A DNA stretch of 64,000 bases from Acidobacteriota bacterium. Its GTDB lineage: Bacteria > Acidobacteriota > UBA6911 > RPQK01 > G965218465. Numbering within the stretch: the stretch's first letter is position 1; each line of letters begins with the position of its first letter. Shown here piece by piece: positions 1 through 16,357 of this stretch. The translations under genes were made by a program, and so were the position numbers. Under the pieces are notes generated by a model that had not been told where the DNA came from, did no database searches, and worked only from the letters and a program-made list of their open reading frames with translations. The stretch is from assembly GCA_965218465.1 (NCBI GenBank), contig OZ244623.1, forward strand, positions 2,801,358 to 2,865,357. Direction: 5' to 3'.

Positions 1-2151
1 GCCTTCCCAGATGCCCCAGCGTTCGCCCTCGAGAAAGATCGCGCCGCTGGTCGCGATCGTCGGATAACCAGACGACCACCTTGCCTCGACCGCGCTGGGG
101 AACTTCAACAGGTCCGTCATGGGGCGGGTGTCGTCGTAGCCGGCCTGCGGTTCGCCCATCTCGTTAGTCGGTACCGGCTCCCAACCGTAGTTGGCACCGG
201 ATGCGAGCAAATTGATCTCGTCATCCCAGTCGGGGCCATGCTCGACCACCCACATCTGGCGGGTGCCGGGTCGAAGCGCGAGTCCCTGCGGGTTGCGATG
301 GCCATACGAGTAGACCGGCGAGTCTGAGAACGGGTTGTCCGCCGGCGGCACGCCCGCGGCATTGACGCGCAGCACCTTGCCGCCGAGGGAGTCCAGATCC
401 TGTGGTGTCGTCCCGATCACTTCGGTGTCGCCCGTACTGATCCAGAGGTAACCGTCGGGGCCGAACCGGAGCCGGCAGCCGTTGTGATTGCGGCCGGACG
501 GAATGCCATCCACGAGGGGGTCGACCACCCGCGTGGCCGTGGTGTAGGTCGCGTCCAACTCCCACACAATGACCTGCACCACTGAACCGGTATGGCTCAT
601 GCAGGTGTAGAACCGCCGGTTGGTGGTGAAGTCGGGGTCGACGACGATCCCCATCAAGCCGTTGTTGTGATCGAGATTGCGGTCGCTCAAATCTGCCGTC
701 AGGTCCCTGACCGTGCCATCAGTGAGCCGAACCATCAGCTTTTCGTCTCGCTCGCCAAACAGCATCGTCTCGTCCGGTAGAAATGCGATCCCCCAGGGAT
801 GTTTCAAGCCGGACACCAGCGTCTTGACCGACAGCTCGGGGCCGGGCTCCCGCTTGCCGACCATGGCTTCGGACGCCGCCACTGCCGTCTTGTCGGCGCC
901 CTCGCCGTCGGTGTAGCTCGCCGTTGCCCGCAGGTACTGGCCCTGGTCGCTGTCCGTCGGCAAGTAGTCGGCCCGGACTGCTCTGTCGATGTCCGCCCAG
1001 GTCATCTTGTCCGAAGACCTGGCCCACTGCCAGGCCACGGCGCTGATGCCGCCGTCCGGGTCGCTCAGCGTCGGCCGGACCACCGTTCGGACCTGGAGCA
1101 GCGCCGGGAACAGCGACACGGACCCGGCCTCATCGACGTTGACCACCGTCACCTCGATGTCCGCCGTGGCGGTGTTCGTGCCTTCGCGGACCTGCACCGT
1201 CACCTCGTAGACATTGTCCCCGTCGGCGTCGTCCGGGTTCTCGTAGTCGGGGGCCGCCGCGAAGGCCAAGTCGCCAGCGGTGCTCAGCATGAACTGGCCC
1301 GCGTCCGCGCCGCCCGCCGTCGGTATGGACCACGTCAGGTCAGTCTCGGCCGTATCTTGGTCCTTCGCGGTCAAGGTCTCCACCGCTGTCGTCCCTTCAT
1401 CGACAGTGAAGGTCGTCGCACTGGTGATCTCCGGCGTTACCGCCTGGAGCGTGAAGGTCAGGTTTGCGATCGGCTCGTCCGAGAACTTGCCCGTCCCCTT
1501 GATGCTGGTGATGGTGCCCTGGGGCGAGGTGGCGGCGTTCGACAATGAGAACTCCGTGCCCTCCTCGGTGCCGGCGTCGTAGGGAAACAGGTCTACCATG
1601 TGCGCCGCCAGCCAGTCTCCCTGCGCATCGAGCAATGACAGCCCGGAGACGCCCACGAACCAGTCCGGGCTGGGAGCGACCATCGAGGTCAGGGTGACCA
1701 GAGGGTGGTCGGTGGTAAGGGTGATGTCGACCGTAGCTGTGGCTGTCCCGCCGGACGCAATGGATTGCTCAATGACGGCGAGAGCATTCGGCATGGCGGC
1801 GTTGATCTCGGACTTGAGGGTGCTCGTTCCACCAATTTCCGCCATACTCTCGATCCCCGCGCTGGCCATGCCGCCCTCTCTCAGGAAGGTCACGTCGGCG
1901 TTGTGAACAGCGCCGATCAGGGTCGTGAAATGCTCACCGGATGGGACGGATACCCCGCTGGCCAGGGCACTGGCGGTGAATTTGCCTTCAAATGTCACCC
2001 GGTAGGTGGCCGATTGCGCGTGCGCGAAGCCGTTGAAGCCCGGCACGGAGAGAAGGGCGAGAAATGTCCAGACGAGGGTGAAGAGCGATCTGTACCGGCT
2101 TGCAAGACGGGTGAAGCACCCCTGGTAGCCCCGGTGATGCTTGCGGCGCAT
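1..2151 (-). CDS. Secreted multidomain protein: Spondin_N domain + cadherin-like domain + PQQ-dependent sugar (glucose/sorbosone) dehydrogenase beta-propeller. The C-terminus lies beyond the window start.
   Basis: Absent from the ORF track because no stop codon lies inside the window. I hand-translated the minus strand from the ATG at 2151. It opens MRRKHHRGYQGCFTRLASRYRSLFTLVWTFLALLSVPGFNGFAHAQSATYRVTFEGKF, a signal peptide followed by a spondin-like domain (..PDWFVGVSGLSLLDAQGDWL..LFPYDAGTEEG). Next comes a cadherin-like unit (TFTVDEGTTAVETLTAKDQD..YENPDDADGDNVYEVTVQV..VVNVDE). The GSDH-type motifs follow (LKHPWGIAFLPDETMLFGER; GHRNPQGLALRPGTRQMWVVEHGPDWDDEINL..GANYGWEP). The frame runs open to position 1. 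Confidence 0.8.
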   Translation of the reverse strand, partial: MRRKHHRGYQGCFTRLASRYRSLFTLVWTFLALLSVPGFNGFAHAQSATYRVTFEGKFTASALASGVSVPSGEHFTTLIGAVHNADVTFLREGGMASAGIESMAEIGGTSTLKSEINAAMPNALAVIEQSIASGGTATATVDITLTTDHPLVTLTSMVAPSPDWFVGVSGLSLLDAQGDWLAAHMVDLFPYDAGTEEGTEFSLSNAATSPQGTITSIKGTGKFSDEPIANLTFTLQAVTPEITSATTFTVDEGTTAVETLTAKDQDTAETDLTWSIPTAGGADAGQFMLSTAGDLAFAAAPDYENPDDADGDNVYEVTVQVREGTNTATADIEVTVVNVDEAGSVSLFPALLQVRTVVRPTLSDPDGGISAVAWQWARSSDKMTWADIDRAVRADYLPTDSDQGQYLRATASYTDGEGADKTAVAASEAMVGKREPGPELSVKTLVSGLKHPWGIAFLPDETMLFGERDEKLMVRLTDGTVRDLTADLSDRNLDHNNGLMGIVVDPDFTTNRRFYTCMSHTGSVVQVIVWELDATYTTATRVVDPLVDGIPSGRNHNGCRLRFGPDGYLWISTGDTEVIGTTPQDLDSLGGKVLRVNAAGVPPADNPFSDSPVYSYGHRNPQGLALRPGTRQMWVVEHGPDWDDEINLLASGANYGWEPVPTNEMGEPQAGYDDTRPMTDLLKFPSAVEARWSSGYPTIATSGAIFLEGERWGIWEG

Positions 2152-2810
2152 GGCGTCACACCACCCAGTCCGACGGGCGGGGCCATTCGGAAGGTCTGAC
2201 GGATAGAGTGCGGGGCGGGCTGAAGATTCAGGCCCATAGTGCTCGGCTCTCATTATGAGAGCCACCGGACCAGGCCGCTTTTGTCAAGCCTTCTTTTCGA
2301 GCCATCCATGACTTTTTCGAAACCCCGCGCCGTTCCGACCGGGATACCGCGCCCGCCAGACGGCCGGTCCGATCGTTCTCAACGTCGTCCCCCCGCCCAT
2401 TTCAGAAGCGCCCCCTGAAACCGGCCTATCGGGCTTCGCCGAGGTGTCGAAAGGACAGTGACCGCCGAGATTCAGTCCGGAACTTCGAACGTGTCCAACG
2501 TCCGAGTTGGATCATCTGCCAGCTTAAGCGAACCTCACACGAGCTGTGAAATGGAAAGATTTTGGGCTCTGGGACACTTTAATTTGGGCAAATGCACGGC
2601 CCTTGTCTCAGTCGTTGCGGGGTCTCGACGGCAATGCGAGATGGAACGCGCGGGGCGCACGGGCATCGACTGGAAGATGCCGCCGGTGTCAGGCGCTGCA
2701 CCGCGACATGGAGTTGAAGGTGCCGGCGAAGCCGGAGCGGCGCGGAATGGTGCTTCACAACCCCGTCAAGCCTGAAAAGAAGCCCGTCGTCCTGTTCCCC
2801 AGCGACCGGT

Positions 2811-3005
2811 TCAAGCCTCTTTCAGTATCCATTCCCGGAATGCCCGGACTCCTGGATTGCGCCTGGAGTCGGCTGTCGTGATGAGGCAGCACCGCGCGGG
2901 CGCCGCGACCTGCCGGTCGAAGAGAGGGACCAGATCGGCCCGTTCCATCTCCCGCGCGATCACCCTCGAGTGTCCGATAGCCGTCGTCGTCGAGCCTGTG
3001 GGAAA
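2811..3005 (-). pseudogene. C-terminal remnant of a LysR-family regulator (about 65 aa, with no N-terminal HTH and no start codon)
   Basis: The minus-strand frame reads ..TAIGHSRVIAREMERADLVPLFDRQVAAPARCCLITTADSRRNPGVRAFREWILKEA*. This has the typical LysR substrate-domain C-terminus (..vraFrdWl..). An in-frame stop lies just upstream. Confidence 0.45.
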
Positions 3006-3065
3006 GGGGGTCTGACTGTTTGTGACTGTTTACGGATATCATAAGAGAGGTTATCCTAGTGGCTC

Positions 3066-3344
3066 ATGATCCGGAGCTTCAGCGACCGAAACACTCGGCG
3101 CTTCTTCGAGGGCCATAGGGTGCCAACGTTCCAGGGATTCGCGGATCAGGCAGTACGCCGTCTCACCATGTTGGATAACGCGGAGTCCCTAAGGGACTTG
3201 GCCGGGTTGCCCAGCAACCGTCTGGAGGCACTACAGGGACGCCGGACCGGTCAGTACAGCATCCGCATCAATGCGAAGTGGCGAATCTATTTTCGTTGGA
3301 GAGGCGACGGACCCTACGAAGTAGAAATTGTGGACTATCACTGA
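3066..3344 (+). CDS. higB: HigB-type toxin (RelE/ParE superfamily, plasmid maintenance system killer)
   Basis: 92 aa: MIRSFSDRNTRRFFEGHRVP..LPSNRLEALQGRRTGQYSIRINAKWRIYFRWRGDGPYEVEIVDYH. This is the characteristic HigB signature. It is followed 13 nt later by an XRE antitoxin gene. Confidence 0.85.
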   Translation: MIRSFSDRNTRRFFEGHRVPTFQGFADQAVRRLTMLDNAESLRDLAGLPSNRLEALQGRRTGQYSIRINAKWRIYFRWRGDGPYEVEIVDYH

Positions 3345-3357
3345 GGAGGTTGAGTCG

Positions 3358-3696
3358 ATGAGCACCAAGAACGGTATGAGACCGGTGCATCCGGGAGAGA
3401 TCTTGCGGGACGAACTGGATGCACTTGGCCTATCGGCCAATGCTCTGTCGAAGGCATTGGATGTGCCCGTGAATCGAATCACGGCGATCCTGAATGGCCA
3501 GCGGGGCGTGACCGCCAACACGGCATTGCGCCTGGCGCGCTACTTTGGGACGACCCCTCAGGTCTGGCTGAACCTGCAGAAGACCTGGGAGCTGAGACGT
3601 GAAGAGATCGAGTCTGGCCGCCGGATTGCCGAGCGTGTCCAGCCCCGGCAAACGATGGCGCCGATGGCAGGGAGCAGGATCGATGCCAGTTCCTGA
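3358..3696 (+). CDS. higA: HigA antitoxin (XRE-family HTH)
   Basis: ATG at 3358, preceded by the RBS GAGGAGG. The sequence MRPVHPGEILRDELDALGLSANALSKALDVPVNRITAILNGQRGVTANTALRLARYFGTTPQVWLNLQ is the classic HigA HTH. Confidence 0.85.
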   Translation: MSTKNGMRPVHPGEILRDELDALGLSANALSKALDVPVNRITAILNGQRGVTANTALRLARYFGTTPQVWLNLQKTWELRREEIESGRRIAERVQPRQTMAPMAGSRIDASS

Positions 3697-3811
3697 CTTT
3701 CAAACCCTGATGTTGCCGGTCCTCAAAGCACTATCCGCCCGTGAAGAAACACGGCTCTCCGAGGTGCGCATCAGAGCATTCTGGCCCGCCGACGTTCAGA
3801 TCTGTGTTTAA
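3683..3811 (+). pseudogene. N-terminal fragment of an Mrr-type restriction endonuclease (Mrr_N winged helix only)
   Basis: MPVPDFQTLMLPVLKALSAREETRLSEVR matches the start of Mrr_N domains. Similarity is lost after about 30 aa and the ORF stops at 42 aa. Confidence 0.5.
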
Positions 3812-3817
3812 GCAAGT

Positions 3818-3910
3818 TTCTTTGGCCTCTCGAAGGGGTATTGGCTGCGAGCGCAGGCTGCTTACGAAACGAAACTAGCGAAGGATGTCCTCTCCGACAC
3901 AATGGAGTAG
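3818..3910 (+). pseudogene. C-terminal remnant of a second XRE/HigA-like antitoxin
   Basis: FFGLSKGYWLRAQAAYETKLAKDVLSDTME* begins right after a stop codon and has no start codon. It resembles the ..LG.s..yWl.lQ..Y.l.. tail of HTH antitoxins. Confidence 0.3.
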
Positions 3911-3956
3911 ATTCGGACATGGCTGGGCTTGAAGAGATCCCGCTTGAGGGGGACCC

Positions 3957-4319
3957 TTAGTGACACTGCTGGGGCACGCGACTCGCCGGAGGAAGTATCT
4001 GAAAAATATAATCAGCCATGATAATCATGTTCACGCTATGTTTATGCGTTGAATAGGGAACCAAACCGTGCATGACAGCATGCCGGCTCGGAACGGAATC
4101 CTGCTCAAATTTTCCCCGTTCCTTGTCCTCTACATTCTCATACAGATGCCCCACCAGCCGACCGAACAGGACAAAACCAAATGCCTCTCTCGGCGAAAAA
4201 TCTTCTAACGGTATTTCATTTGTTAATTTATAAATCATTTTTTTGGATCCAATACGTCCTGAATCATCGAAGAGATTGAAGCGAATAATTCTTTCGATCT
4301 CCGGAACCCAGGAAGTCAT
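3957..4319 (-). CDS. Hypothetical 120-aa protein with a HEPN-like Rx4H motif, in a sharply AT-rich segment
   Basis: MTSWVPEIERIIRFNLFDD..FEQDSVPSRHAVMHGLVPYSTHKH.. carries an R-x4-H motif (RHAVMH). Its ATG overlaps the stop of the upstream giant gene (ATGA). Spot GC counts on lines 4021 and 4201 give about 42% and 27%. The longer 195-aa track ORF is a read-through into the neighbouring gene. Confidence 0.5.
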   Translation of the reverse strand: MTSWVPEIERIIRFNLFDDSGRIGSKKMIYKLTNEIPLEDFSPREAFGFVLFGRLVGHLYENVEDKERGKFEQDSVPSRHAVMHGLVPYSTHKHSVNMIIMADYIFQILPPASRVPQQCH

Positions 4320-7300
4320 CTCTGGACAGGCACCACCGGCAGCGTGGTGAAGATGCCGTTGGCGGCATCCAGCTCTACCGCCACTCCGGCAAACTCTCCC
4401 TCGGCCGTGCAACGCACCAACCCCACGAAGTCGGAAGTGTCGGTACGGGTGAACACCTCTTCGATAAAGCGGCCATCCTGCCCGTTGACCTGCAGCTCGA
4501 TGTCCACCTCTTCCAGCACTTCGCCCTCTTGCATCAGTCGACAACTGACCACCAGCTCTTCGGCTTCCAGGTTGCGGATGGCTGCCGCCGTGCTGATTCC
4601 TCCCTCCTGTCGCCGGGCCGGAAAGAGGGCATCCCTGACCGCTTGACCGGCTCCCACTCCGGCCACTCCAACCCCCGGCAGGTCGAAGCGCAGCACCCCT
4701 CCGATGGGACCTTCGGCAACCACCCTCACCGATCCCGCCACCACCTCTCCTCGACCATGGGTGGAAATCGTCACTGCCTCCAGCGGTTCCAGCTCGTTCT
4801 GAATGGTTAAGCCTCCGTCCTCTGCCACTTCCAGATTTCCTGTCACCTCCAGCACCGATTGGGCTGCAAGCCTTTCGCCTTCCCGATCGTAGAAGTAAAA
4901 GCTGGGACGGGTGGGAGGAATGGGCGTCGGAAAGGGACCGGCGGGACGACTCGGCCGGATGGACACATTCACCAACACCAGATCGGAGGTGATGGAAGCA
5001 CCATTGGCGAAGTGGGCAAAATCAAGGGCATACTCCCCGCCTCTGAAGACCGTCCGGTCCACCGGCAGCACCGGCAAGGTGGTAAAGATCCCATTGCCGG
5101 CATCCAGCTCCACCGCCACTCCGACGAACAGTTTGCCCGCGGGTGCGGTGCAGCGCACCAATCCCACGAAGTCGGTCGTATCGGTAGCAGTGAACACCTC
5201 TTCAATGAAGCGGCCGTCCTGTCCGTTGACCTTCAGCTCAATGTCCACCTCTTGCAGCACCGCCCCCTCTTGCATCAGTTGGCAACTCACCACCAGTTCT
5301 TCTGCTTCCAGGTTGCGAATGGCTACTGCTGTGCTGATGCCTCCCGCCTGTCGCCGGGCCGGAAAGAGGGCATCCCTGACCGCTTGACCGGTTCCCACTC
5401 CGGCCACTCCAACCCCAGGAAGGTCGAAACGCAGCACCCCGCCAAGGGGACCGTTGGAGAGGACCGTCACCGATCCCGCCACCACCACCCCTTGACCATG
5501 GGTGGAAATCGTCAGTGCCTCGAGCGGTTGCATTTCACTTTGAACAGTCAAGCTTCCGTCCTCGGCCACCTCCAGCTCTTCGGTGACCTCCACCACCGAT
5601 TCGACTGCAATCCTTTCGCCTTCCCGGTTGTAGAAGTAAAGCCAGGGACGGATGGGACGAGCGAACACGTTCACCAACACCAGATCGGAGGTGATGGACG
5701 AACCGTTGGCGAAATGGGCAAACTCCAATCTTCCCACTCCCGGAGTGACCTCGACCTGGTTGGAAGAGCTGCCGGCGCCGGCCGCGCTGACCGCACGCAC
5801 CTGGAAAAGGTAGACCCGGCCGTTGACCAGCTCGGTGACCGTATGAGTGGTCTCGGTCGACCCGGTGGATATCCAGCCCCCGCCCGTCCCGCTGATCAGA
5901 TACTCGTAATCGGTGATGGGAAAGCCGCCGTCGTCTTCCGGCGCCTCCCAGGAGAGTGTCACCTGCTCGTCTCCCCCCACCGCCTCCAGATTCCTGGGCG
6001 CCGACGGCACCGGGTTGGGAACGGGAGGGAGACCGCCACCGCCCCCGGGTCCCGGCGGCTTGGCTGGATACTCGGCCAGATCCTCAGCCGAGTTGCCGAC
6101 CGCATCCCGGATCGGGTTCGTCCCCGCCCTATAGCTCACGGTTACCGTCTGGCCCGCCGCTGCCGGCGAGTCGAGGGTCAGCGTGACCGCGCTTTCGCTC
6201 ACCAGAATCTGGGTGAGCGGCCGCTCGGCTCCCTCCACATTCACTGTGAAGTCGCTCGTCGCCGGTATCGAATCCTCGTCGAGCACCTCATTGTAGGTCA
6301 GCACCAGCATGGCGCCGTCCACGGTCGCGCTCCGGAGTTCCGGCTTGACCCCATCCACCTTGTGGCCGGCCTGTGGCGGTACCTCCTCATAGGCCACCAC
6401 CGCCGGATTGTCCGCCAGATCCTGGATTGCCCCGTCGTTGAGGACGATGCGGCCGGCGGCAATACTCACCCCATCAGTATCGATATCGTTGTCCTCCACC
6501 GTGTAGAGGAACACTACGTCCGCACTCACCGGCGTGGGGCTGTATCGGGCCGGCTTGCTCTGATTCCCTACCGTCAGGTCCAGAGTCGGCGTCCCGTGGG
6601 TCGTGTCCACCGTCACCGTCTCGCTGAATCTGACCGTTACTGCGATCATGTCCCCGATGGCATAGGTCTCGTCCATCCCTGGGTCCGAACTGAGCTCGAT
6701 CCCTTCGATCGTTGGCGCCGTCGTGTCCGGTGTTTGGTTGTCCACCTCTTGGTCCGTCAGCGCTCCGGCCTCATTGCCCACCGGGTCCCGGATCGGATTC
6801 GTCCCCGGACTGTAGCTCACCCGAATCCCCGTGTCCCCGTGCTCCACCGCCGGATTCAGCGTCAGGGTCACTACTCTCCCGCTCACCGAAACGTGGGTGA
6901 CCATACGCTCGCTCCCCGCGACCGTGATCGTGAAGTCCCCGGTCGCCGGTATCGAACTCCCGTCCAGCGCCTCTCCATAGGTCAGCGTCAGCACCGGCCC
7001 GTTCACCGCCGCTGAGGAAAGTGCCGGATCGACGCCGTCCACAAGGTTCGGCCTGAGGATGAACAGGCCCTGTTCAATCACGCTGACAATCACGACTCCA
7101 CTGTCAAAGAACGGATAGTTGCTCCACGTTCCGGTGTCGGTGTTCGTCGGGTCGCTGCCGGGGTAGACGTCAAAGAAAGCTACTTCAGTTAGATTGCCGT
7201 TGGCGATGTCGGTAATGTCCAGGATGCGCAAACCCGCCTGGTAGTTCGACTGGTAGGTGTAGCTGCCCTTGACGTACAGGTTGTGGTCGATCACGGTTGT

Positions 7301-8491
7301 CGTGGAGTCGTGAAAACCGATGAGCGCCGGGGCGTCGAGATTGCTCACGTCCCACAGGTAAGTACGGGTATTCGTGACATCGGGGTCGTTCGCTTCATCC
7401 AACTCGTCGCCCAGCAAGAAGTAGGCATGATCTTCCGTCAGCCAGCCTTGGTGGGTGTACCTGGAGCCGCTGTAGCCCGTGCGGGAGAGCATCACCGGGT
7501 CTGCCTTGTTCGTCACGTCGACGATCGTCAGCGTACCCTCGTTGGAGTTGAAGCAGATCTCTTTTGCCTGGTGATCGAGGTCCGGGCCATCGTAGTTCAC
7601 ACACTGTGCATCGTGGGTGTAGCCGTCGCCGCTGAAACAACCGGCTGAGGTCGGGCTCGTCGGAGTTTGAATGTTGATCATGTGCAGCCCGCCCCTGCAA
7701 GTGTTCGTACCTACTGCGTAAGCAAAGCCGCTGTCTTCGTTAATCGCGAGATTGTGAGCGTGCGAGAAACCGGGGTAGTGGGCGGTTTCGGAAAACGTGG
7801 CAGGCGGTGAGGCCACCGCTCTCAACTGAGTCAGGTCAAATACCTGCATCCCGCTGTTCTTTGCCTCCGTCACTATGAAGGCATGGTCCGCGTATACCTT
7901 GATGTCCCGCCATTTCGAGTCGGCGGCGGGTGGCGGAAGGTTGCCAAGATAGATCGGGTTGACCGGGTCGCTGATGTCCACGAACGAGGTGCCGTTGGTC
8001 CGGCCCATAATCGCGTACTCCTTGCCGGTCGAGGAATCCGTCCAGCCCCAGATGTCGTTAGCCTCGCCGCCGCCAATGTCGGCTAAAGCCAGAAACGACA
8101 TCAGATCGACGTTACTGCAGGGGTAGGTTCCAGCCATCCCTCCGGAGCAGGGTGTCACCGCTGCCGCCGTCGCCGACACCATCAGCGTCTCGTCCTCTAC
8201 GACCTCGCTCTTCGCCTGCCGGTGCTCGACGCCGTACGCCTCTGGCTGCCGCGCGGGCAGGAGCTGCGAACTCCCCTTCCTCCGGGCGGGCGTCCGCTGC
8301 TCTTTCGCGGCCAGCAGCGTCTCGATCTGCCGCACGGTCTTCACCGCCAACTCGCCGCCGGCCTGGGCCGAGGTTTGCTGCGCCCCGACGGGCCCGACCA
8401 GCAGCGGGATCGACACCACCGCCCCCAGCAGCCCCCAGCACCGACGGGCACCGGCCTGTGCCATGATTCCTGTCGTGCGTGGCAGCTTCAT
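4316..8491 (-). CDS. 1391-aa secreted surface protein: choice-of-anchor B / LVIVD beta-propeller + bacterial Ig-like (SwmB-like) domains + FN3 + 2 copies of an unknown C-terminal domain
   Basis: Complete ORF with a signal peptide. Choice-of-anchor B signature: GTYPCSNVDLMSFLAL..NDIWGWTDSSTGKEYAIMG..SFVDISDPVNPIYLG..WRDIKVYADHAFIV..GMQVFDL. Two SwmB-like units: LTLTYGEALDGSSIPATGDFTITV.. and LVLTYNEVLDEDSIPATSDFTVNV... FN3: PSAPRNLEAVGGDEQVTLSWEAPEDDGGFPITDYEY... The protein ends in two units of about 225-240 aa that each start FAHFANG. Confidence 0.9.
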   Translation of the reverse strand: MKLPRTTGIMAQAGARRCWGLLGAVVSIPLLVGPVGAQQTSAQAGGELAVKTVRQIETLLAAKEQRTPARRKGSSQLLPARQPEAYGVEHRQAKSEVVEDETLMVSATAAAVTPCSGGMAGTYPCSNVDLMSFLALADIGGGEANDIWGWTDSSTGKEYAIMGRTNGTSFVDISDPVNPIYLGNLPPPAADSKWRDIKVYADHAFIVTEAKNSGMQVFDLTQLRAVASPPATFSETAHYPGFSHAHNLAINEDSGFAYAVGTNTCRGGLHMINIQTPTSPTSAGCFSGDGYTHDAQCVNYDGPDLDHQAKEICFNSNEGTLTIVDVTNKADPVMLSRTGYSGSRYTHQGWLTEDHAYFLLGDELDEANDPDVTNTRTYLWDVSNLDAPALIGFHDSTTTVIDHNLYVKGSYTYQSNYQAGLRILDITDIANGNLTEVAFFDVYPGSDPTNTDTGTWSNYPFFDSGVVIVSVIEQGLFILRPNLVDGVDPALSSAAVNGPVLTLTYGEALDGSSIPATGDFTITVAGSERMVTHVSVSGRVVTLTLNPAVEHGDTGIRVSYSPGTNPIRDPVGNEAGALTDQEVDNQTPDTTAPTIEGIELSSDPGMDETYAIGDMIAVTVRFSETVTVDTTHGTPTLDLTVGNQSKPARYSPTPVSADVVFLYTVEDNDIDTDGVSIAAGRIVLNDGAIQDLADNPAVVAYEEVPPQAGHKVDGVKPELRSATVDGAMLVLTYNEVLDEDSIPATSDFTVNVEGAERPLTQILVSESAVTLTLDSPAAAGQTVTVSYRAGTNPIRDAVGNSAEDLAEYPAKPPGPGGGGGLPPVPNPVPSAPRNLEAVGGDEQVTLSWEAPEDDGGFPITDYEYLISGTGGGWISTGSTETTHTVTELVNGRVYLFQVRAVSAAGAGSSSNQVEVTPGVGRLEFAHFANGSSITSDLVLVNVFARPIRPWLYFYNREGERIAVESVVEVTEELEVAEDGSLTVQSEMQPLEALTISTHGQGVVVAGSVTVLSNGPLGGVLRFDLPGVGVAGVGTGQAVRDALFPARRQAGGISTAVAIRNLEAEELVVSCQLMQEGAVLQEVDIELKVNGQDGRFIEEVFTATDTTDFVGLVRCTAPAGKLFVGVAVELDAGNGIFTTLPVLPVDRTVFRGGEYALDFAHFANGASITSDLVLVNVSIRPSRPAGPFPTPIPPTRPSFYFYDREGERLAAQSVLEVTGNLEVAEDGGLTIQNELEPLEAVTISTHGRGEVVAGSVRVVAEGPIGGVLRFDLPGVGVAGVGAGQAVRDALFPARRQEGGISTAAAIRNLEAEELVVSCRLMQEGEVLEEVDIELQVNGQDGRFIEEVFTRTDTSDFVGLVRCTAEGEFAGVAVELDAANGIFTTLPVVPVQR
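4319..5735. repeat. Tandem in-frame duplication (two units of about 670 and 710 nt) that encodes the duplicated C-terminal domain of the giant protein
   Basis: Long near-identical DNA stretches sit 741 nt apart. For example, 4611-4690 (cgccgggccggaaagagggcatccctgaccgcttgaccggctcccactccggccactccaac..) recurs at 5352-5430. The protein units align end to end (..GVLRFDLPGVGVAGVG.GQAVRDALFPARRQ.GGISTA.AIRNLEAEELVVSC.LMQEG..). The promoter-distal unit has one insertion of about 13 aa. Confidence 0.85.
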
Positions 8492-8569
8492 AATCTCCCG
8501 GCGAGTCGGAACATCTCTCTGACTCTTCCAGAGTTTTCCAAGCTTCCGGAGCGGCTGTCTTTTTCACAA

Positions 8570-8800
8570 CCTTTCGCGCCCGCCAAACCGAACCGCCCCG
8601 GAGAGAGAAAGCCGGGCGGACTGTATCGACGAACGGTATTGTAGTGGATTTTCCAGGCCTCGATACTGTGCCGGGCAGCGGCGAGATCGCTGAACGAGTA
8701 CTGTTTCGAACCCGCATTGTGGAACTTGCCGTTGCAGCTCGCACGGCGCAGCCGACCGCCAGGATCCTTCAGCCACTCGAGGAGCTCGGCCTGCACGAGC
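8570..8800 (-). mobile_element. Degenerate C-terminal remnant of an IS3-family transposase (rve integrase-core tail)
   Basis: ..LLEWLKDPGGRLRRASCNGKFHNAGSKQYSFSDLAAARHSIEAWKIHYNTVRRYSPPGFLSPGRF.. parallels the IS3 OrfB tail (..NGk.Es/rFN..lr.E.l....F.sl.eAr..ie.W...YN..RpHssLgy.tP.eF). No catalytic core and no inverted repeats are visible. Confidence 0.5.
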
Positions 8801-9416
8801 GAAACGACCGCCCACCGATCTCCTCTCTTCCTGCCATCATCGTTTTCCACCTCCGCTCCTGACTGTGCCGGTATGGAGGTCTTGGCGGCCCAGGTTTCCG
8901 ACCGTCGGTGGACGGGTTTGTTTAGCGCACGGGAGCCAGCTTACCCAATGTGTGACATTGGAGCCTGGCGAGGGGTGGCTCCGCCCCCTTCGATCCCCTG
9001 GAGGTCCGCGCTCCGGCGGAGTTGCCGGGCGGGGGGCTCGCCCCCCGTCCCTCGTGCCGGCGCGTCCTGATGGCTGATCGCCGGACCGTCACCGCCTCCG
9101 CCCGCGTATCGCCGGCCGAGCTCGCCGACTGGCGACGACGACTGCCTGGAGATCGGCCTTGGAGGGTCTTGGCAGTGGAACCCGCTCGACGATCCCGTCC
9201 TCGACACCTGCCGGAATCGGACGAGTCCATACAACCTGCCCCTGGGCCGCGGCGCTGGAGGATGGCCTGTGGACGATGCTGTTGTGACCGAGCGAATGGA
9301 CCTACTAGCCTATCAGATCACGGCATGAGCGTATGCTGTCTGAAGTGTAGCGAGAGCGAGCCGGTGCGGCCTGGTCAGATCGTTCTCCGCTCCGGGCAGA
9401 TCACTGGAGGCTTATC

Positions 9417-9998
9417 GTGCCAAACTTCACCTACACCCTCTTTGCCACCGACGTCGCGATTCTAATTGTCCTACTGGTGGGCGTGCTCTGGTCCATCTGG
9501 GTCCCCGACAAACGGATCTGGCCGCCGCGGCGGCTGCGTTCCTGGCAGTGGGTTCTGACGTGGACCTGTTTCTTGGCCGTCTGCGGGCTCAACGTGGCCC
9601 TCCTCTTCCTGGACTGGAATGCATGGCGGTTCCCGGGCGCTCTCCGGTTCGTCGCGGGCATACCTCTGGCACTGCTCGGAGGACTCGTGGGCGTCTGGGG
9701 CGTCGTCACGCTTGGCGGGAAAAACAGCGCCGGGCTCAAGGACGGCTTCGTGTTGGCTGGTCCCTACCGGTTCATACGGAACCCGCAGTACCTGGGCGAC
9801 ATCATGATCTTCGTCGGTGTGAGCCTGATCGCGAACTCTTTGTTGCTATGGGTCGCTCACGCGCTGCTCAGCTTCGTATTCGTCCTGGCACCGATCGCCG
9901 AGGAACGCTGGCTGGAGCAACAGTACGGACCGGCGTACCGCGAGTATCGACGAGCCACGCTGCGATTCTGGCCTCGGTCGCCCAGAGGGCAGACATGA
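9417..9998 (+). CDS. Isoprenylcysteine carboxyl methyltransferase (ICMT/Ste14-like) family membrane methyltransferase
   Basis: 193 aa, several TM helices, GTG start. Family motif: LAGPYRFIRNPQYLGDIMIFVG...ERWLEQQYGPAYREYRRAT. Confidence 0.8.
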   Translation: MPNFTYTLFATDVAILIVLLVGVLWSIWVPDKRIWPPRRLRSWQWVLTWTCFLAVCGLNVALLFLDWNAWRFPGALRFVAGIPLALLGGLVGVWGVVTLGGKNSAGLKDGFVLAGPYRFIRNPQYLGDIMIFVGVSLIANSLLLWVAHALLSFVFVLAPIAEERWLEQQYGPAYREYRRATLRFWPRSPRGQT

Positions 9999-10272
9999 TC
10001 GCTGGGTTCCTGGCTGAGACGTGGATCTAGCGGGAGCAGCGGCTGAAGCCTTCGTCCGCCCGACTTCAGGGGTCGATCGTCTTCCCCCAGCCCCATGGCG
10101 ACCGAACAGCTCGGTGTGTACCGTGTCAAAGCCCGCTGACTCTGATCCTCGCTCACCCAGCAAGACTTCGCCCGGCCGTGCGCCAGCGTGCCGATCCAGC
10201 GCACGCACGCGCTTCTCTTGAGCGCCGAGGGACACCGGCACCTCGAACCAGTCATGCTGCACCTGCCTCTGA

Positions 10273-10906
10273 TCACACGCATCCGTCCGGTAACTGCCCG
10301 ACCTCTGTAATGACGCGGTAGCCGGCTTGGGCCAGATAGATGGCCCAGTCGTCCATCAGCAGGCCCCGGCGCTCGAACAGATCCGTGCGCCGGTAAGCTG
10401 CCGCGATCTGGTTGCGGACCTTGTGTGCCAGCGCGGCCTCCACCACCTCGCGGGGATGATCCGTCTCTTGGGCCGCCCAGTCCCGGAAACTCGACCGGAA
10501 GCCGTGCGGCACAGCCGCGATCTCGAGCTCCCTGAGTAGTTCCGGACAGCGCCGTGCTCGCCATTGGCTTTCCGCGCACGCTCGGAAACACGAGCGGGCT
10601 GCCGCGACCGAGCGCCCGCGCCTGCTCGAGGATCTCCAGAGCACGCCGACACAGCGGGACCCGGTGCTCGCGCGCCGCCTTCGTGCGTGGGGCCGGGATG
10701 GTCCACGCACCCTCGGCCTGATCGATCTCCGTCCAGAGCGCCCCGCGGACCTCGCCGGAGCGTGTCGCCGTCAGCACCAGGAACTCGAACGCCAGCTTCA
10801 CGACCGGCCGCGCCCTCGACGCCCGCACCGTCTCGATTGCGGACGCCACTTCGCCGTGCGGCAACGCCCGCATGTGCCGCACGACATCCCCCTGCGAACC
10901 GAGCAC
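10273..10906 (-). pseudogene. int: P4-type tyrosine integrase, N-terminally truncated and frameshifted
   Basis: Frame A (10906 down to about 10545): HMRALPHGEVASAIETVRAS..LAFEFLVLTATRSGEVRGALWTEID..WTIPAPRTKAAREHRVPL..LVFPSVRGKPMAS. Frame B (about 10543 down to 10273): ELLRELEIAAVPHGFRSSFRDWAAQETDHPREVVEAALAHKV.NQIAAAYRRTDLFERR. Removing one G in TCCGGAAC (plus-strand tccgga, 10541-10546) restores ..ALSELLRELEI... An in-frame stop 8 codons upstream of 10906 removes the arm-binding/SAM-like half. Confidence 0.8.
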
Positions 10907-11147
10907 CGGACCGATCCGGTCGTACTGTCACGCACGATACGCCAACCTAGCCGGCCGTTTCGATTGGCTCCAGATCCAGCTCTCATCTTGTTGCACTGTC
11001 AATCATGCCCTTCTTGTCAGCCTGATGGCGGGGCGCGCCTTTGTCCCCAACTCTGGAGCTTGGTATCTTGCAGCCGGAGGGGAGGGGTGCTACTGCTCTT
11101 GGTCAGGACGCTCTTCAAGGGTTGGAAACTCTTCCGTCATTCCCACT

Positions 11148-11176
11148 TTGACACTCTTGGACTCAGATCTTATGTA
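11148..11176 (+). promoter_or_regulatory. Candidate sigma70-type promoter for dnaK
   Basis: TTGACA (11148-11153), a 17-nt spacer, then TATGTA (11171-11176), about 100 nt upstream of the dnaK ATG. Pattern match only. Confidence 0.3.
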
Positions 11177-11276
11177 TCCGTTGGACTAAAGAGAGTGCTT
11201 GCACTGATTCGGTTGGGCTGGGTTCTTGATCCAGCAAGCCGGTCTTTTTTTTGTTGTACAGGAGGTCGTTCAAACC

Positions 11277-13184
11277 ATGAGTAAGATTATTGGAATTGAC
11301 TTGGGGACCACCAACTCGGTTGTGGCCGTAATGGAAGGTAACGAGCCGTCGGTGATAACCAACCCGGAAGGATCGCGCATCACGCCTTCGGTGGTGGCCG
11401 TAACCAAGAGTGGCGAACGACTGGTGGGTCAAGTGGCCAAACGCCAAGCAGTCACCAACCCCGACAACACAGTCTATTCGATCAAGCGCTTCATGGGGCG
11501 TAAGCATGCGGAAGTGTCCGAGGAGATCGGCATGGTCCCTTACAAGGTATCCAGGGCATCCAATGGAGATGCTGTTGTTGACCTGGGGGGCAAGGCCACG
11601 GCGCCACCCGAGATTGCAGCCACGATCTTGCAAAAACTCAGGTCGGCTGCTGAAGATTACCTGGGGCAGCCGATCAAGCAGGCAGTCATCACGGTCCCGG
11701 CTTATTTCAACGACTCCCAGCGCCAAGCCACCAAAGACGCCGGTAAGATCGCCGGTTTAGAGGTGCTTCGTCTGGTCAACGAACCCACTGCAGCAGCGTT
11801 GGCTTATGGCTTGGACAAGAAGAAAGACGAAACCATCGCGGTCTTTGATTTCGGTGGCGGCACTTTCGACATCTCGATTCTTGAAGTTGGCGAGGGGGTG
11901 GTGGAGGTCAAGTCTACCAATGGAGACACTCACCTGGGTGGAGACAATATCGACCAAGCCTTGATCAACTGGATCATCGAGGAATTCAAGAAGGACCAGG
12001 GGATCGACCTCTCACAGGACAAGATGGCGCTGCAGCGGCTTAAGGAAGCTGCTGAGAAAGCCAAGATGGAGTTGTCAACCACTCAGGAAGCGGATATCAA
12101 CCTACCTTTTATCACCGCCGACAACAGCGGCCCCAAGCATCTCAATCTCGATCTCAACCGAGCCAAATTTGAACAGTTGGTGGAAAAGTTGGCTCGCCGA
12201 ACGCTGGAGCCTTGCCGCAAGGCGCTGGAAGATGCCGGTCTCCAACCCAAAGACATCGATGAAGTGGTCATGGTGGGCGGATCGACTCGGATACCCCTGG
12301 TGCAGAAACTTGTCAAGGAGTTCTTCGGCAAAGATATCCACCGGGGCGTGAACCCTGACGAGGTTGTCGCTGTGGGCGCTGCCGTCCAGGCCGGTGTCTT
12401 GGGCGGCGACGTCAAGGATGTCCTTTTGCTGGATGTCACTCCCTTGTCGTTGGGTATCGAAACCTTGGGCGGGGTCAATACGGTCTTGATTCCCCGCAAT
12501 ACGACCATTCCGACTCGGAAAAGCGAATCTTTCTCGACGGCGGCCGATAACCAGACTTCGGTAGAGATCCATGTTTGTCAGGGGGAGCGCCCAATGGCAG
12601 CCCACAACAAATCGCTGGGGAAATTTCAGTTGATGGGTATTCCGTCGGCACCTCGTGGCATGCCCCAAATCGAGGTCACTTTTGATATTGACGCCAACGG
12701 CATTCTCAACGTTAGCGCCAAGGATCAGGGGACAGGTAAGGAGCAGAAGATCACGATTACCGGCTCAAGCGGCCTGAGCGATAGTGACATTGGACAAATG
12801 GTCAAGGAAGCCGAGTCTCACGCTGATGAGGATCAGCTTAAGAAGGAAACGATCGAGGCTCGCAATCGCGCCGATAACCTGGTGTACAGCACTGAGAAGT
12901 TGTTAAACGAGAACAGTGACAAGATCGGGGCTGACGATCGCAAGGGTATTGAGGACGCCTTGGCCGATACCAAAAAAGCCATTGAAAGTGGGGAAGTTGA
13001 GCAGATCAGTTCTGCCATCGAACGATTGACCCAAGCCTCCCACAAGCTGGCGGAAGTGATGTATCAATCGGCTGCTTCGCAACAGCCACCTCCGCCGGGA
13101 CAGGAGCCGCCTCAAGCCGGCGCCGACAAGGACAAGGAAGATGTCATCGACGCCGAGTACGTTGATGTCGAGGAGGGCAAGTAA
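11277..13184 (+). CDS. dnaK: Molecular chaperone DnaK (Hsp70)
   Basis: [18 protein letters not shown].., DLGGGTFD, and a C-terminal EEGK-type tail. The RBS AGGAGG lies 11 nt upstream of the ATG at 11277. The track ORF begins earlier, at 11226. Confidence 0.97.
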
Positions 13185-13209
13185 AAATCGAGGTGGCCTG
13201 AGGGGGGCC

Positions 13210-13482
13210 TTGCCTGCACTGCTGCTGTCATCGATCGATCTGTATCAAGTGCTGGGGCTCGACAAGAACGCCTCAGCCGATGACATCAAGAAATCTTACC
13301 GCCGTCTGGCACGTCGCTTTCATCCCGACATATCTGGCCGGTGTCGAAGTGGTTCTCAACATGAGAAAAAATGGAGCGGATGCAGACGGAAGTTCAAGAA
13401 ATGGTGCATTACCTTTGTAACCGCTTCGATATCGATCCCGGTTTGTCGGAATCGAGCCTCCAGCACCGCGTGGTTGGGGTGA
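13210..13482 (+). pseudogene. dnaJ: Truncated dnaJ: J-domain helices I-II and the HPD motif only, then unrelated sequence
   Basis: In the position where dnaJ normally follows dnaK, the frame reads ..[32 protein letters not shown] (13234-13329). All three forward frames then lose J-domain similarity. There is no helix III/IV, no G/F region and no CxxCxGxG zinc finger. The possible TTG start is at 13210. Confidence 0.6.
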
Positions 13483-13536
13483 CACCATCGCCTCCGCTCG
13501 TCGTCACTAGGCGAAATCCTCCCCAATGAGCAGTAA

Positions 13537-13950
13537 CTACACTGGTGCGCAAGCACAGCTTCTCCTGATCTGTGTGTAGATCCGACGCAAGCTCCGTTGA
13601 TGCTGCTTCCGGGGCAATTTCTTGGCCAGCAGTAGTTCCTGAATGCGACCCAGAGCATGTTCCAGTCCCGTAACCAGGATGGCGGTCCGGCTGGGATCGT
13701 AGGGAAGATGGATTCCCCCAAAACCTAATTCGGCGAAGACCTTCAGGTAGCGGGCCGTTACCTTGTCGGGGCAATCGATTCGCTTGCGGCCGGCTTTGAG
13801 CTCAAAGCCCAGGAAGGTGTAGAGGATCCGGGGGGAACATTTCCGCCCCAGAAGCTCGACCGGGCGAGTGGAGTGCTGCAGTACATCCAGGCAATAGATT
13901 TGCCGGATTCGTTCAATCTCATCGCTGATGCCAATGTCGATGTCTGCCAT
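13537..13950 (-). CDS. Hypothetical 137-aa protein transcribed divergently from the BMC-H gene. I could not assign a family.
   Basis: ATG at 13950 with the RBS GGAGGAGA 4 nt upstream. Sequence: MADIDIGISDEIERIRQIYCLDVLQHSTRPVELLGRKCSPRILYTFLGFELKAGRKRIDCPDKVTARYLKVFAELGFGGIHLPYDPSRTAILVTGLEHALGRIQELLLAKKLPRKQ... The composition is non-repetitive and looks like a globular protein. Confidence 0.55.
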   Translation of the reverse strand: MADIDIGISDEIERIRQIYCLDVLQHSTRPVELLGRKCSPRILYTFLGFELKAGRKRIDCPDKVTARYLKVFAELGFGGIHLPYDPSRTAILVTGLEHALGRIQELLLAKKLPRKQHQRSLRRIYTQIRRSCACAPV

Positions 13951-14110
13951 CGATTCTCCTCCGGATTCCAACATTAGATCACCAAAGGCTGCCCCCAAAG
14001 CAAGTGCGAGTGTAGAAAGGTTCTGTCTGGTAGAGGCCAGCGGCGATTGGGTTGACCCTTATTCGGACAACGTGTTAGCTTAGCCTTCTTCATTGCTGGA
14101 GGATCAATCG

Positions 14111-14410
14111 ATGTCGATGGAAGCGCTGGGCATGGTCGAAACCAGGGGTTTGGTGGGTGCCATTGAGGCGGCTGATGCGATGGTGAAGGCGGCCAATGTT
14201 TTGCTGATGGGCAAGGAGTATATTGGAGCCGGGTATGTGACTGTGATGGTTAGAGGTGATGTCGGCGCTGTCAAGGCGGCCACCGATTCCGGAGCTGCCG
14301 CAGCTCGCCGGGTGGGTGAATTGGTGAGCGTACATGTGATCCCGCGTCCTCATTCAGAGGTCGAAAAGATTCTTCCTTCAGTCCCTAAGTCCAAGTCACC
14401 CCGATCGTAG
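14111..14410 (+). CDS. Bacterial microcompartment hexameric shell protein (BMC-H; PduA/EutM/CcmK fold)
   Basis: [81 protein letters not shown] is a canonical PF00936-type sequence. RBS GGAGGA lies 8 nt before the ATG at 14111. Confidence 0.9.
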
Positions 14411-14440
14411 TCGACCTCCAGCGGGCCTCCCAGGAGGGAG

Positions 14441-16159
14441 TTGTTGTCAGACTCGGCCAGCGGTTTGCACGATCAGGATCTTGTTTCCGTCCAGCAGGCC
14501 CGTGATTTTGTCGAACGGGCCGACGCGGCTGCATCCCGCTTCAAGGAATTCAACCAGCAACAGGTGGACAAGATCGTAGCGGCCATGGCCGCGGCGGCCC
14601 GTCAAGCGTCACGCCGCTTGGCTGAACTGGCGGTTGAGGAAACCGGACGCGGAAAGGTGGCCGACAAGGTTACCAAAAACCTCTTCTCCGCGGTAGACGT
14701 CTACAATTACGTCAAGGACCTCAAGACCTGCGACGTGCTTTCTGAGGACACGGAAAAGCAGATTATCGAGATCGGTGTGCCCTTCGGTGTGATCGCGGTC
14801 GTGGTCCCGACCACCAATCCCACTTCCACTGCCATTTTCAAGCTTCTTTCAGCTCTCAAGGGTCGCAACACGGTGGTCGTGGCGCCGCACCCTCAGGCAG
14901 TGCGTTGCACGATCGAGACTTGCAGTGCGATGGCTAAGGCGGCCATTCGGGCCGGTGCTCCCCAAGATAGTATTCTCTGCATGGATCAGGTGACCTTGGA
15001 AGGCACTACTGAATTGATGCGCCATCGGAAAACTCGTCTGATTCTGGCCACCGGAGGTAGCGCCATGGTGCGGGCGGCTTACTCTTCGGGCAAGCCGGCC
15101 TATGGCGTGGGACCAGGAAACGTCCCGGCTTTTGTGGAAAGAACGGCCGACGTACCCAAAGCCGTCCGGGACATCCTGGCCGGCAAGACTTTTGACTATG
15201 GACTTCTCTGCTCATCGGAACAGGCTTTGATTTGCGACCTTCCGGTGAAGGAGCAAGTCTTGGACGAACTGCGTAAGCGCAAAGCATATCTGTTATCGGA
15301 GTCAGAGCAACAGCAGTTAGAGGGCTTGGTGCAGACAGCAGCCGGCAGGCTCAATCCGGAGATCGCCGGGAAAAGTTCCCAGACGATCGCTGAAATGGCT
15401 GGTTTCTCGGTGCCCGATGACACAGTTTGCCTGGTCGGTTTTCCCAAAGGCGTGGGCAAATCCCACCCCCTTTCCATGGAAAAGCTCTCTCCCATTTTGG
15501 CTTTTTACTCGGCTGACGGATGGGAAGACGCCTGCCGGCGCTGTATCGAGATCCTCAGTTTTGGTGGATTGGGTCACACCATGTCGATCCACTCCACCGA
15601 CCGTGGCATCATTATGGAGTTCGGACTCAAAAAGCCCGCCTACCGGATTTGCGTCAACACCCCTTCCACTCATGGCTCGGTGGGTTTGACGACCGGAGTT
15701 CCACCCTCAATGACCCTGGGGTGCGGAAGCCCCGGGGGCAACATCACATCGGACAACATTACTCCGCTGCACCTGATCAACATTCGCCGTTTGGCCTTTG
15801 AGACTCGCTCGGTGGACCAGATCGACTTTGCCCCTTCCGACCAAGTTGCCTCAAGTGCTCGGGCCGGTGATCTGCCTCTCCGGAAACTGGTCTCTAATGT
15901 AGTCGAGGATTATCTGGCTCAAAAAAAAAAGGGGGCCTTGGGTAAAGGGTTGGATCAGCCCTCAGCCACAGTTCTTCCGCTCCCCTCTCCCAGGGCCGTC
16001 GCTCCCGTTCCGGCCGGCCCCGCGGTCGATTTTGTCTGTGAAGAAGACGTTCGGCAAGCCCTCGACTCCAGTCAGAAAATCCCGGTAAACGCACGAACCA
16101 TCATCACCCCTTCGGCGCGCGATCTAGCCCAGGATAAGAATCTTTTTATCTGGCGCTGA
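14441..16159 (+). CDS. CoA-acylating aldehyde dehydrogenase (AdhE-N-terminal-like) with a C-terminal extension of about 110 aa
   Basis: 572 aa. ALDH motifs: [38 protein letters not shown], and the catalytic region [12 protein letters not shown]. The tail contains an amphipathic helix ([17 protein letters not shown]) between Pro/Ser/Gly-rich linkers, then [44 protein letters not shown]. It starts 30 nt after the BMC-H gene, with the RBS AGGAGG and a TTG start. Confidence 0.9.
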
Positions 16160-16357
16160 AAGGCGTCAACTACAGAGTCACTGCAAGAAATGGTTGCAGT
16201 ACTCGACAGAGAAACACTGCGCTACAGTAAACCGTTTGGGCACCTCTAGCCATCTAAGCCTAAGAACGCTCCCAAAGCGGGGTTTTTTGGGCGCCATCAG
16301 GGTGGCTGGCATGATTCTTGCTTAGTTGCTGGTGTGTTATGATGACTCGGTTGGCCA

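Follow-up and report, generated by a model that had tools for sequence, protein, structure and literature searches.

The stretch of DNA considered here, hereafter the window, comprises 64,000 nucleotides from an Acidobacteriota bacterium (assembly GCA_965218465.1, contig OZ244623.1, positions 2,801,358 to 2,865,357), and all coordinates below refer to it unless another locus is named. It contains a gene for a bacterial microcompartment (BMC) shell protein of the BMC-H class (14111..14410) followed, after 30 nt, by an open reading frame (ORF) for an aldehyde dehydrogenase (AldDH; 14441-16159), both on the + strand and together forming a compact two-gene unit. Beyond its catalytic core, the AldDH carries a tail in which an encapsulation peptide (EP)-like helix and a small end domain are strung on linkers. 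This pair is very likely an AldDh satellite locus of the ACI-type (Acidobacteria) microcompartment, the main locus of which would lie elsewhere in the genome, and the end domain appears to belong to a module that recurs among several otherwise unrelated microcompartment proteins.

The shell gene encodes a EutM/PduA-like hexamer tile of 99 residues, running from an ATG at 14111, with a GGAGGA ribosome-binding site 5' of it, to a stop codon at 14410. The preliminary description of this DNA regarded it as a textbook BMC-H, and rightly so: PF00936 matches a single BMC domain over residues 5-80 (E=2e-28), the NCBIfam EutM model scores 134.6 bits, identity to E. coli EutM is 71%, and the tiling motifs, namely the edge lysine in DAMVKAA and IPRPH, are both present. 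An exact-protein look-up recovered the identical protein on 19 public contigs, with the same gene context each time. It had also been claimed that no other shell or core gene occurs in the 64 kb. This holds, inasmuch as hidden Markov models built from 54 BMC-P and 227 BMC-H sequences, along with a phosphotransacylase (PTAC) probe, detected no further BMC-P, BMC-H or PTAC gene in the window.

The AldDH ORF yields 572 residues when read from its first TTG at 14441. A ribosome-binding-like AGGAGG lies at 14432-14437, and the second TTG, at 14444, is therefore the likelier start; it would give a protein of 571 residues, the same as that called for the orthologs. The catalytic core (14444..15805, residues ~1-455) matches PF00171, is modeled by AlphaFold with predicted local distance difference test (pLDDT) values mostly above 90, and contains a catalytic loop, Cys257-Ser-Ser-Glu-Gln, that is invariant in all 54 homologs compared. 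Against TIGR02518, which has a curated cut-off of 620.1 bits, the protein scores 603.1 bits, and against the N-terminal half of AdhE 537 bits; the aldehyde dehydrogenase subfamily model PRK15398, which we take to cover EutE/PduP-type enzymes, reaches 248 bits. A sequence search of the PDB returned a similar ranking, with 5J78 at 503 bits, 3K9D at 482, AdhE at ~375 and 4C3S, presumably a PduP-type structure, at ~190. Because the TIGR02518 and AdhE scores far exceed that of PRK15398, and those of 5J78 and 3K9D far exceed that of 4C3S, the label "AdhE-type" given to the enzyme at the outset appears correct, although its TIGR02518 score is just below equivalog level. The accompanying suggestion that such an enzyme is unusual for metabolosomes was overstated, since the subfamily is common in BMC loci. 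For instance, AldDHs 47-51% identical to that of the window occur in Clostridia loci containing EutQ or BMC-P, and in one SPU-type locus.

The plan of the tail (linker, helix, linker, end domain) is fixed across at least 120 homologs, as judged from an alignment of the window AldDH with 120 listed database homologs of 50-97% identity and 98% coverage. The first linker (15806..15868, residues 456-476) is variable, with low column conservation, and partly disordered, with residues 469-477 falling below a pLDDT of 50. The second (15929..16021, residues 497-527) is rich in Pro, Ala, Ser and Gly, which together make up 58% of it, and varies in both length and sequence; pLDDT values drop to 31-34 here and predicted disorder spans residues 495-522. 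Between them lies the amphipathic helix (15869..15928, residues 477-496), predicted for residues 480-496 and flanked by disordered segments. Its consensus is R-x-V-V-x-x-V-V-[DE]-x-[YWF]-L-x-x-K. Hydrophobic residues fill the paired positions 483/484, 487/488 and 491/492 in 68-100% of the 120 homologs, R481 hardly varies, and the EPs of EutC and EutE from E. coli show the same hydrophobic pattern. Amphipathic, within the range of ~15-20 residues and attached through disordered linker, the predicted helix has the hallmarks of a BMC encapsulation peptide, and the helix at this site of the ACI AldDh is designated an EP in the catalog of Sutter et al. 2021 (PMC8217296). The encapsulation-peptide layout proposed earlier for this tail is thus supported by the homolog alignment and by the helix and disorder in the AlphaFold model. 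Between strains, differences in the tail fall mainly in the linkers.

The tail closes with a folded domain of about 45 residues (16022..16159 including the stop codon, residues 528-572). It is strongly conserved, with a consensus that starts VDFVCEDDVRxA....KIvV and ends VFvW; across 38 diverse copies, F, V, E, A, T and P residues are invariant, and the window copy retains every one of the family-invariant residues. Residues 530-572 are compact in the full-length AlphaFold model (pLDDT 82-87), and when folded alone from the 38 copies the domain is predicted with a pLDDT of 94.8 as a beta-alpha-beta-beta-alpha-beta arrangement.

Each of the 38 copies was scanned singly against NCBIfam and Pfam, and the same few families recurred. 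TIGR02536 ("eut hypothetical") was matched by 34 of the 38, at the family's C-terminus, and PduM was matched through three models: TIGR04493 (18 copies; C-terminal in other carriers), NF011957 (nine copies; C-terminal in the Poribacteria locus L020, discussed below) and the PduM-like PF15953 (16 copies, at family positions 117-152 of 153). The EutQ model NF012001 was matched by 13 copies and EutT by two, the module being N-terminal in both of these E. coli proteins, while the remaining NCBIfam and Pfam families gave single or double chance-level matches only. In the reciprocal direction, the end-domain profile picks two of 16 E. coli Eut proteins, namely EutQ at residues 8-39 and EutT at residues 3-41. 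The end domain thus appears, from profile similarity in the right register and at protein termini, to share a BMC-association module with the N-termini of EutQ and EutT and the C-termini of PduM and TIGR02536 proteins. The earlier suggestion that the last ~45 residues resemble the EutQ N-terminus is therefore borne out by the profile searches, and the resemblance extends to EutT, PduM, TIGR02536 and PTAC. We found no mention of a module shared by EutQ, EutT, PduM and TIGR02536 in the literature searched.

The same profile was run on the ORFs of every locus fetched, 21,962 in total, with matches considered at E<0.02. All such matches were AldDH copies or ORFs of BMC-H-containing loci, plus E. 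coli EutQ, and five carriers other than AldDH were identified in the fetched loci, each PTAC, EutQ or TIGR02536-like. In one clostridial locus (L070, 5202-6224, +), a PduL-type phosphotransacylase bears the ~40-residue module at its C-terminus, with E=6e-8 to the AldDH-derived profile, and the module has therefore been swapped between different microcompartment core enzymes. It is N-terminal on two clostridial EutQ cupins (L076, L083) and C-terminal on flavoprotein-like TIGR02536-type proteins of Clostridia, Propionibacteria and Poribacteria. Since it is attached by linkers to unrelated proteins, all of them annotated or found as microcompartment-locus proteins, the end domain is best described as a portable module. 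A representative-library search with the profile returned no other architecture: the 150 listed of 725 matches were without exception fragments from the C-terminal end of AldDHs of this family. A PDB sequence search returned only artefacts, in the form of designed repeat proteins that sum weak repeat scores.

The Poribacteria carriers illustrate a separate arrangement. Four loci (L019, L020, L028 and L056) have a lone BMC-H, 80-82% identical to that of the window, and an ORF of ~250 residues about 800 nt downstream of it (about 11026-11845, +) that ends in the module; in L020 this ORF scans as TIGR02536/PduM-like. AldDH and BMC-P are absent within 10 kb, and these loci are another possible satellite-type arrangement.

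The pair itself fits a known system. Sutter, Melnicki, Schulz, Woyke & Kerfeld (2021, Nat Commun 12:3809; PMC8217296) defined the ACI type from 125 loci, found in Acidobacteria only. Its main locus encodes a class II aldolase (PF00596) with a C-terminal EP, a hydroxyacid dehydrogenase (PF00389/PF02826), three unknown proteins, BMC-H and a BMC-P triplet, while the AldDh is always found on a satellite and has an EP near its C-terminus followed by a ~50-residue domain of unknown function (PMC8217296). This AldDh is sometimes encoded with a BMC-H and occasionally with a fourth BMC-P (PMC8217296, Supplementary Data 2). The window pair agrees with that account in each of its features, and the proposal, one of two in the preliminary description, that it is a satellite of a microcompartment encoded elsewhere matches the account almost word for word. 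The other proposal, an undescribed minimal system of shell plus one enzyme, finds no support as worded, as both the pair and the tail of EP plus 50 residues have been described and are widespread in Acidobacteria.

Surveying genomes reinforces this assignment. Among the matches listed, the named relatives of both the AldDH and the window DnaK are all from Acidobacteria/Acidobacteriota, and in the genome collection the nearest BMC-H loci come from Acidobacteriota metagenome-assembled genomes. A BMC-H scan of this collection, with one genome per species, returned 80 loci, and in all of the ~30 acidobacterial ones BMC-H is followed by an AldDH with the end domain. The hosts of these tailed AldDHs include Pyrinomonadaceae, Blastocatellia, Vicinamibacterales, Bryobacterales, Sulfopaludibacter and others; in the non-acidobacterial loci of the scan, no AldDH had the end domain. 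None of the ~30 acidobacterial loci has a main-type ACI locus within 10 kb of the pair.

Six Pyrinomonadaceae satellites (L026, L044, L047, L048, L050 and L051) are larger, with a BMC-P immediately downstream of the AldDH, and are the catalog's variant with an occasional fourth BMC-P. For example, L050 (10001-16227) comprises BMC-H, the tailed AldDH, BMC-P, an ACT-domain protein, a zinc-ribbon protein, DUF711 (PF05167), a hypothetical protein and a second BMC-H. Homologs of the ACT and DUF711 proteins occur in all six loci, at 57-100% identity, and may be ACI cargo or accessory genes. Two candidates for an ACI main locus were discarded: L050, which has neither the aldolase nor the BMC-P triplet, and L090, which has three BMC-P genes and is an SPU-type locus.

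What the tail may accomplish is suggested by work on its relatives. [quoted passage not shown] PduM mediates shell-cargo binding (PMC9132943) in the Pdu system, which according to Held et al. 2016 is without a EutQ homolog. By analogy, we envisage that BMC-H and AldDH, probably co-transcribed, contribute a hexameric tile to the shell and an enzyme to the core, respectively. Between the AldDH and DedA genes, a consensus scan and reading of the sequence gave a pattern match at 16268-16290 (+) to a terminator, consisting of a hairpin and a T-run, which would end the two-gene transcript. The AldDH would convert the organelle's aldehyde to acyl-CoA with reduction of NAD+; a carbohydrate-derived aldehyde is the substrate suggested in the catalog, by analogy with the ACI aldolase (PMC8217296). 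In the proposed scheme, its tail presents two separate assembly signals on flexible linkers, an EP and then a folded domain resembling EutQ H1/H2, with the EP joining the AldDH to the enzyme core and the EutQ-like module most likely anchoring it to the inner face of the shell. Since the end domain matches the shell-binding segment of EutQ (residues 9-41), it is probable that the AldDH fastens both itself and the core to the shell. It would thus be its own shell-to-core tether, perhaps also the core's, in the role held by EutQ and PduM in Eut and Pdu organelles.

Several observations weigh against this reading. The class II aldolase, hydroxyacid dehydrogenase and BMC-P triplet of an ACI main locus are not in the 64-kb window, and their presence elsewhere in the window genome, as in its closed relatives (contigs of 3.17-3.42 Mb), is presumptive. 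The AldDH narrowly misses the TIGR02518 equivalog cut-off (603 versus 620 bits). The window clade stands apart from those ACI clades that are well sampled: its AldDH shares no more than ~57% identity with the Pyrinomonadaceae/Vicinamibacterales type, its dnaK...DedA-Lol synteny is its own, and the clade may therefore have been outside the 2021 catalog. Two closely allied alternatives deserve mention. BMC-H and the tailed AldDH could operate alone, without pentamers, aldolase or other core enzymes, forming open sheets, tubes or a scaffold that concentrates the AldDH, which we think improbable; or this clade could be devoid of any main locus, with BMC-H and an AldDH bearing EP and EutQ-like anchor constituting a self-sufficient, pentamer-free enzyme scaffold, for which we see a similarly slim chance. 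Other BMC genes are indeed absent from the 64 kb and from within 10 kb of the pair in same-clade relatives, the pair occupies a very stable, clade-specific housekeeping neighborhood, and satellite-only genomes may have gone unnoticed because the catalog calls a main locus only where BMC-H and BMC-P co-occur (PMC8217296). However, genomes with a main locus are documented to carry this pair, tail included, as a satellite, and distance from that locus is usual for this AldDH, so that its absence from the neighborhood is uninformative. The strong constraint on EP and putative shell-anchor domain is, moreover, most simply accounted for by a real organelle with other cargo.

Loss of function, rather than economy of parts, would be another way to explain a solitary pair. 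If the clade had lost its microcompartment, the AldDH might persist as an ordinary cytosolic acetaldehyde dehydrogenase with a functionless tail; this core type is also known from stand-alone cytosolic enzymes (5J78), and decay is evident nearby in the same species, where only a fused stub is left of dnaJ and hspR. Yet neither ORF is disrupted, 19 contigs share an identical BMC-H protein, the end domain retains all family-invariant residues, the hydrophobic pattern of the EP is undisturbed and strain differences concentrate in the linkers, and a decaying remnant is accordingly highly improbable. A different question is whether the end domain, even in a working organelle, is a shell anchor. It could instead bind a cofactor or partner or act in regulation, for example by recruiting a partner that recycles NAD+ or CoA, its likeness to EutQ H1/H2 reflecting a common small fold. 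Compared as single sequences, the end domain and EutQ, EutT or PduM are only weakly similar (11-27 bits), such that the case rests on recurrence, and Foldseek found no meaningful structural match to the end-domain model in the PDB (best E 0.55). Moreover, EutT and the flavoprotein-like TIGR02536 proteins are cofactor-handling enzymes, and PduM has been reported more with cargo than with shell (PMC9132943). Nevertheless, the catalytic domains of the carriers (AldDH, PTAC, cupin acetate kinase, adenosyltransferase, flavoprotein-like and PduM) are unrelated, and their common trait is to be microcompartment-locus proteins; EutQ 9-41, the only copy dissected experimentally, localizes with the shell (PMC12487888). 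We consider a non-anchoring role unlikely on this balance. The satellite assignment accounts for the pair as a whole, and shell binding and encapsulation would follow by analogy with EutQ and known EPs.

The surroundings of the pair bear on its age. The window belongs to a contig of 3,421,666 bp. Near-identical strains, among them circular contigs of 3,171,991 and 3,193,430 bp, match the window at 98.5% DNA identity from position 10331 onward. The clade shares a block consisting of dnaK, (dnaJ, hspR), a ~135-residue hypothetical ORF on the opposite strand, BMC-H, AldDH, DedA and LolCE-LolD-LolA, which is retained down to 58% AldDH identity (a TARA marine scaffold) and is absent from other acidobacterial clades. 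Because the block has been kept to that level of divergence, the satellite is old and stably placed. The hypothetical ORF (13537-13998, -) is divergent from BMC-H, has no Pfam match, and is 51-61% identical in the same-clade relatives L006 and L009. It was dismissed as a general third component of the system, since it lies beside the pair only in the window clade and is absent in other Acidobacteria. No riboswitch or other RNA was found in an Rfam scan of the window.

Two further features lie upstream of the pair. At 13141-13520 (+), dnaJ and hspR have shrunk to a fused stub in which DnaJ residues 3-35 (13237-13335) are followed without a break by HspR residues 52-108 (13334-13511). L009, with ~62% AldDH identity, retains full dnaJ and hspR between dnaK and BMC-H, and same-species strains have only a 46-residue ORF there. 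The region upstream of dnaK (1-10330) has a G+C content of 0.59-0.65, versus ~0.55 elsewhere, and is not common to L095, the 98.5%-identical relative. An integrase-like ORF lies at 9857-10906 (-), and other strains carry different cargo at this spot beside a phage-type integrase, including restriction-modification genes, a transposase and toxin-antitoxin genes. The region upstream of dnaK therefore appears to be a strain-variable integration hotspot.

In practical terms the locus is ordinary: it can be annotated as an AldDh satellite of an ACI-type microcompartment, and presenting it as a minimal organelle of a new kind would be unwarranted. What is new, and modestly so, is the candidate assignment, from sequence profiles, of the catalog's ~50-residue unknown domain to the EutQ/EutT/PduM/TIGR02536 module, with the tethering role that this would imply. 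The occurrence of the module on at least six unrelated microcompartment protein families suggests a second, folded targeting or tethering signal alongside the helical EP. It offers the testable idea that ACI organelles join core to shell without EutQ or PduM, and could serve as an engineering tag. According to the catalog, Acidobacteria can account for up to 60% of the bacterial community in soil (PMC8217296). With ACI organelles uncharacterized, the closed 3.2-3.4 Mb genomes of the window species provide a compact system in which to pursue the main locus and substrate.

Set beside known systems, the pair is closest to the ACI satellite, with which it shares an acidobacterial host, a PF00171 AldDh located away from the shell/aldolase locus, an adjacent BMC-H, an EP and an end domain of ~50 residues. 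It differs in belonging to a clade with its own dnaK ... DedA-Lol neighborhood and in having an AldDH only ~50-57% identical to those of Pyrinomonadaceae and Vicinamibacterales loci, and the domain placed here in a wider module was left unassigned in the catalog. Stand-alone acetylating acetaldehyde dehydrogenases and the N-terminal half of AdhE (5J78, 3K9D and 6AHC; TIGR02518) resemble the window AldDH over a ~450-residue core, with the catalytic Cys loop kept. The matches to these structures stop at AldDH residue ~450-460, leaving the tail of EP, linker and domain uncovered, and AdhE carries an alcohol dehydrogenase half where the window AldDH has its tail. PduM (PF15953, TIGR04493) and TIGR02536 proteins match the end domain over their C-terminal ~40 residues, whereas their N-terminal parts are unrelated, being flavoprotein-like or PduM-specific, and none is an aldehyde-step enzyme. 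A further comparison is with EutQ of the Salmonella and E. coli Eut systems, in which residues 8-39 align with the AldDH end domain through a common signature, (D/E)(D/N)(V/I)R.A ... IITP.AR(D/E). A flexible linker connects the module to the remainder of either protein. In EutQ, however, the module is N-terminal and precedes two elements that the AldDH lacks, the EP-binding H3/H4 region and a cupin acetate-kinase domain; the window enzyme, unlike EutQ, has an EP of its own.

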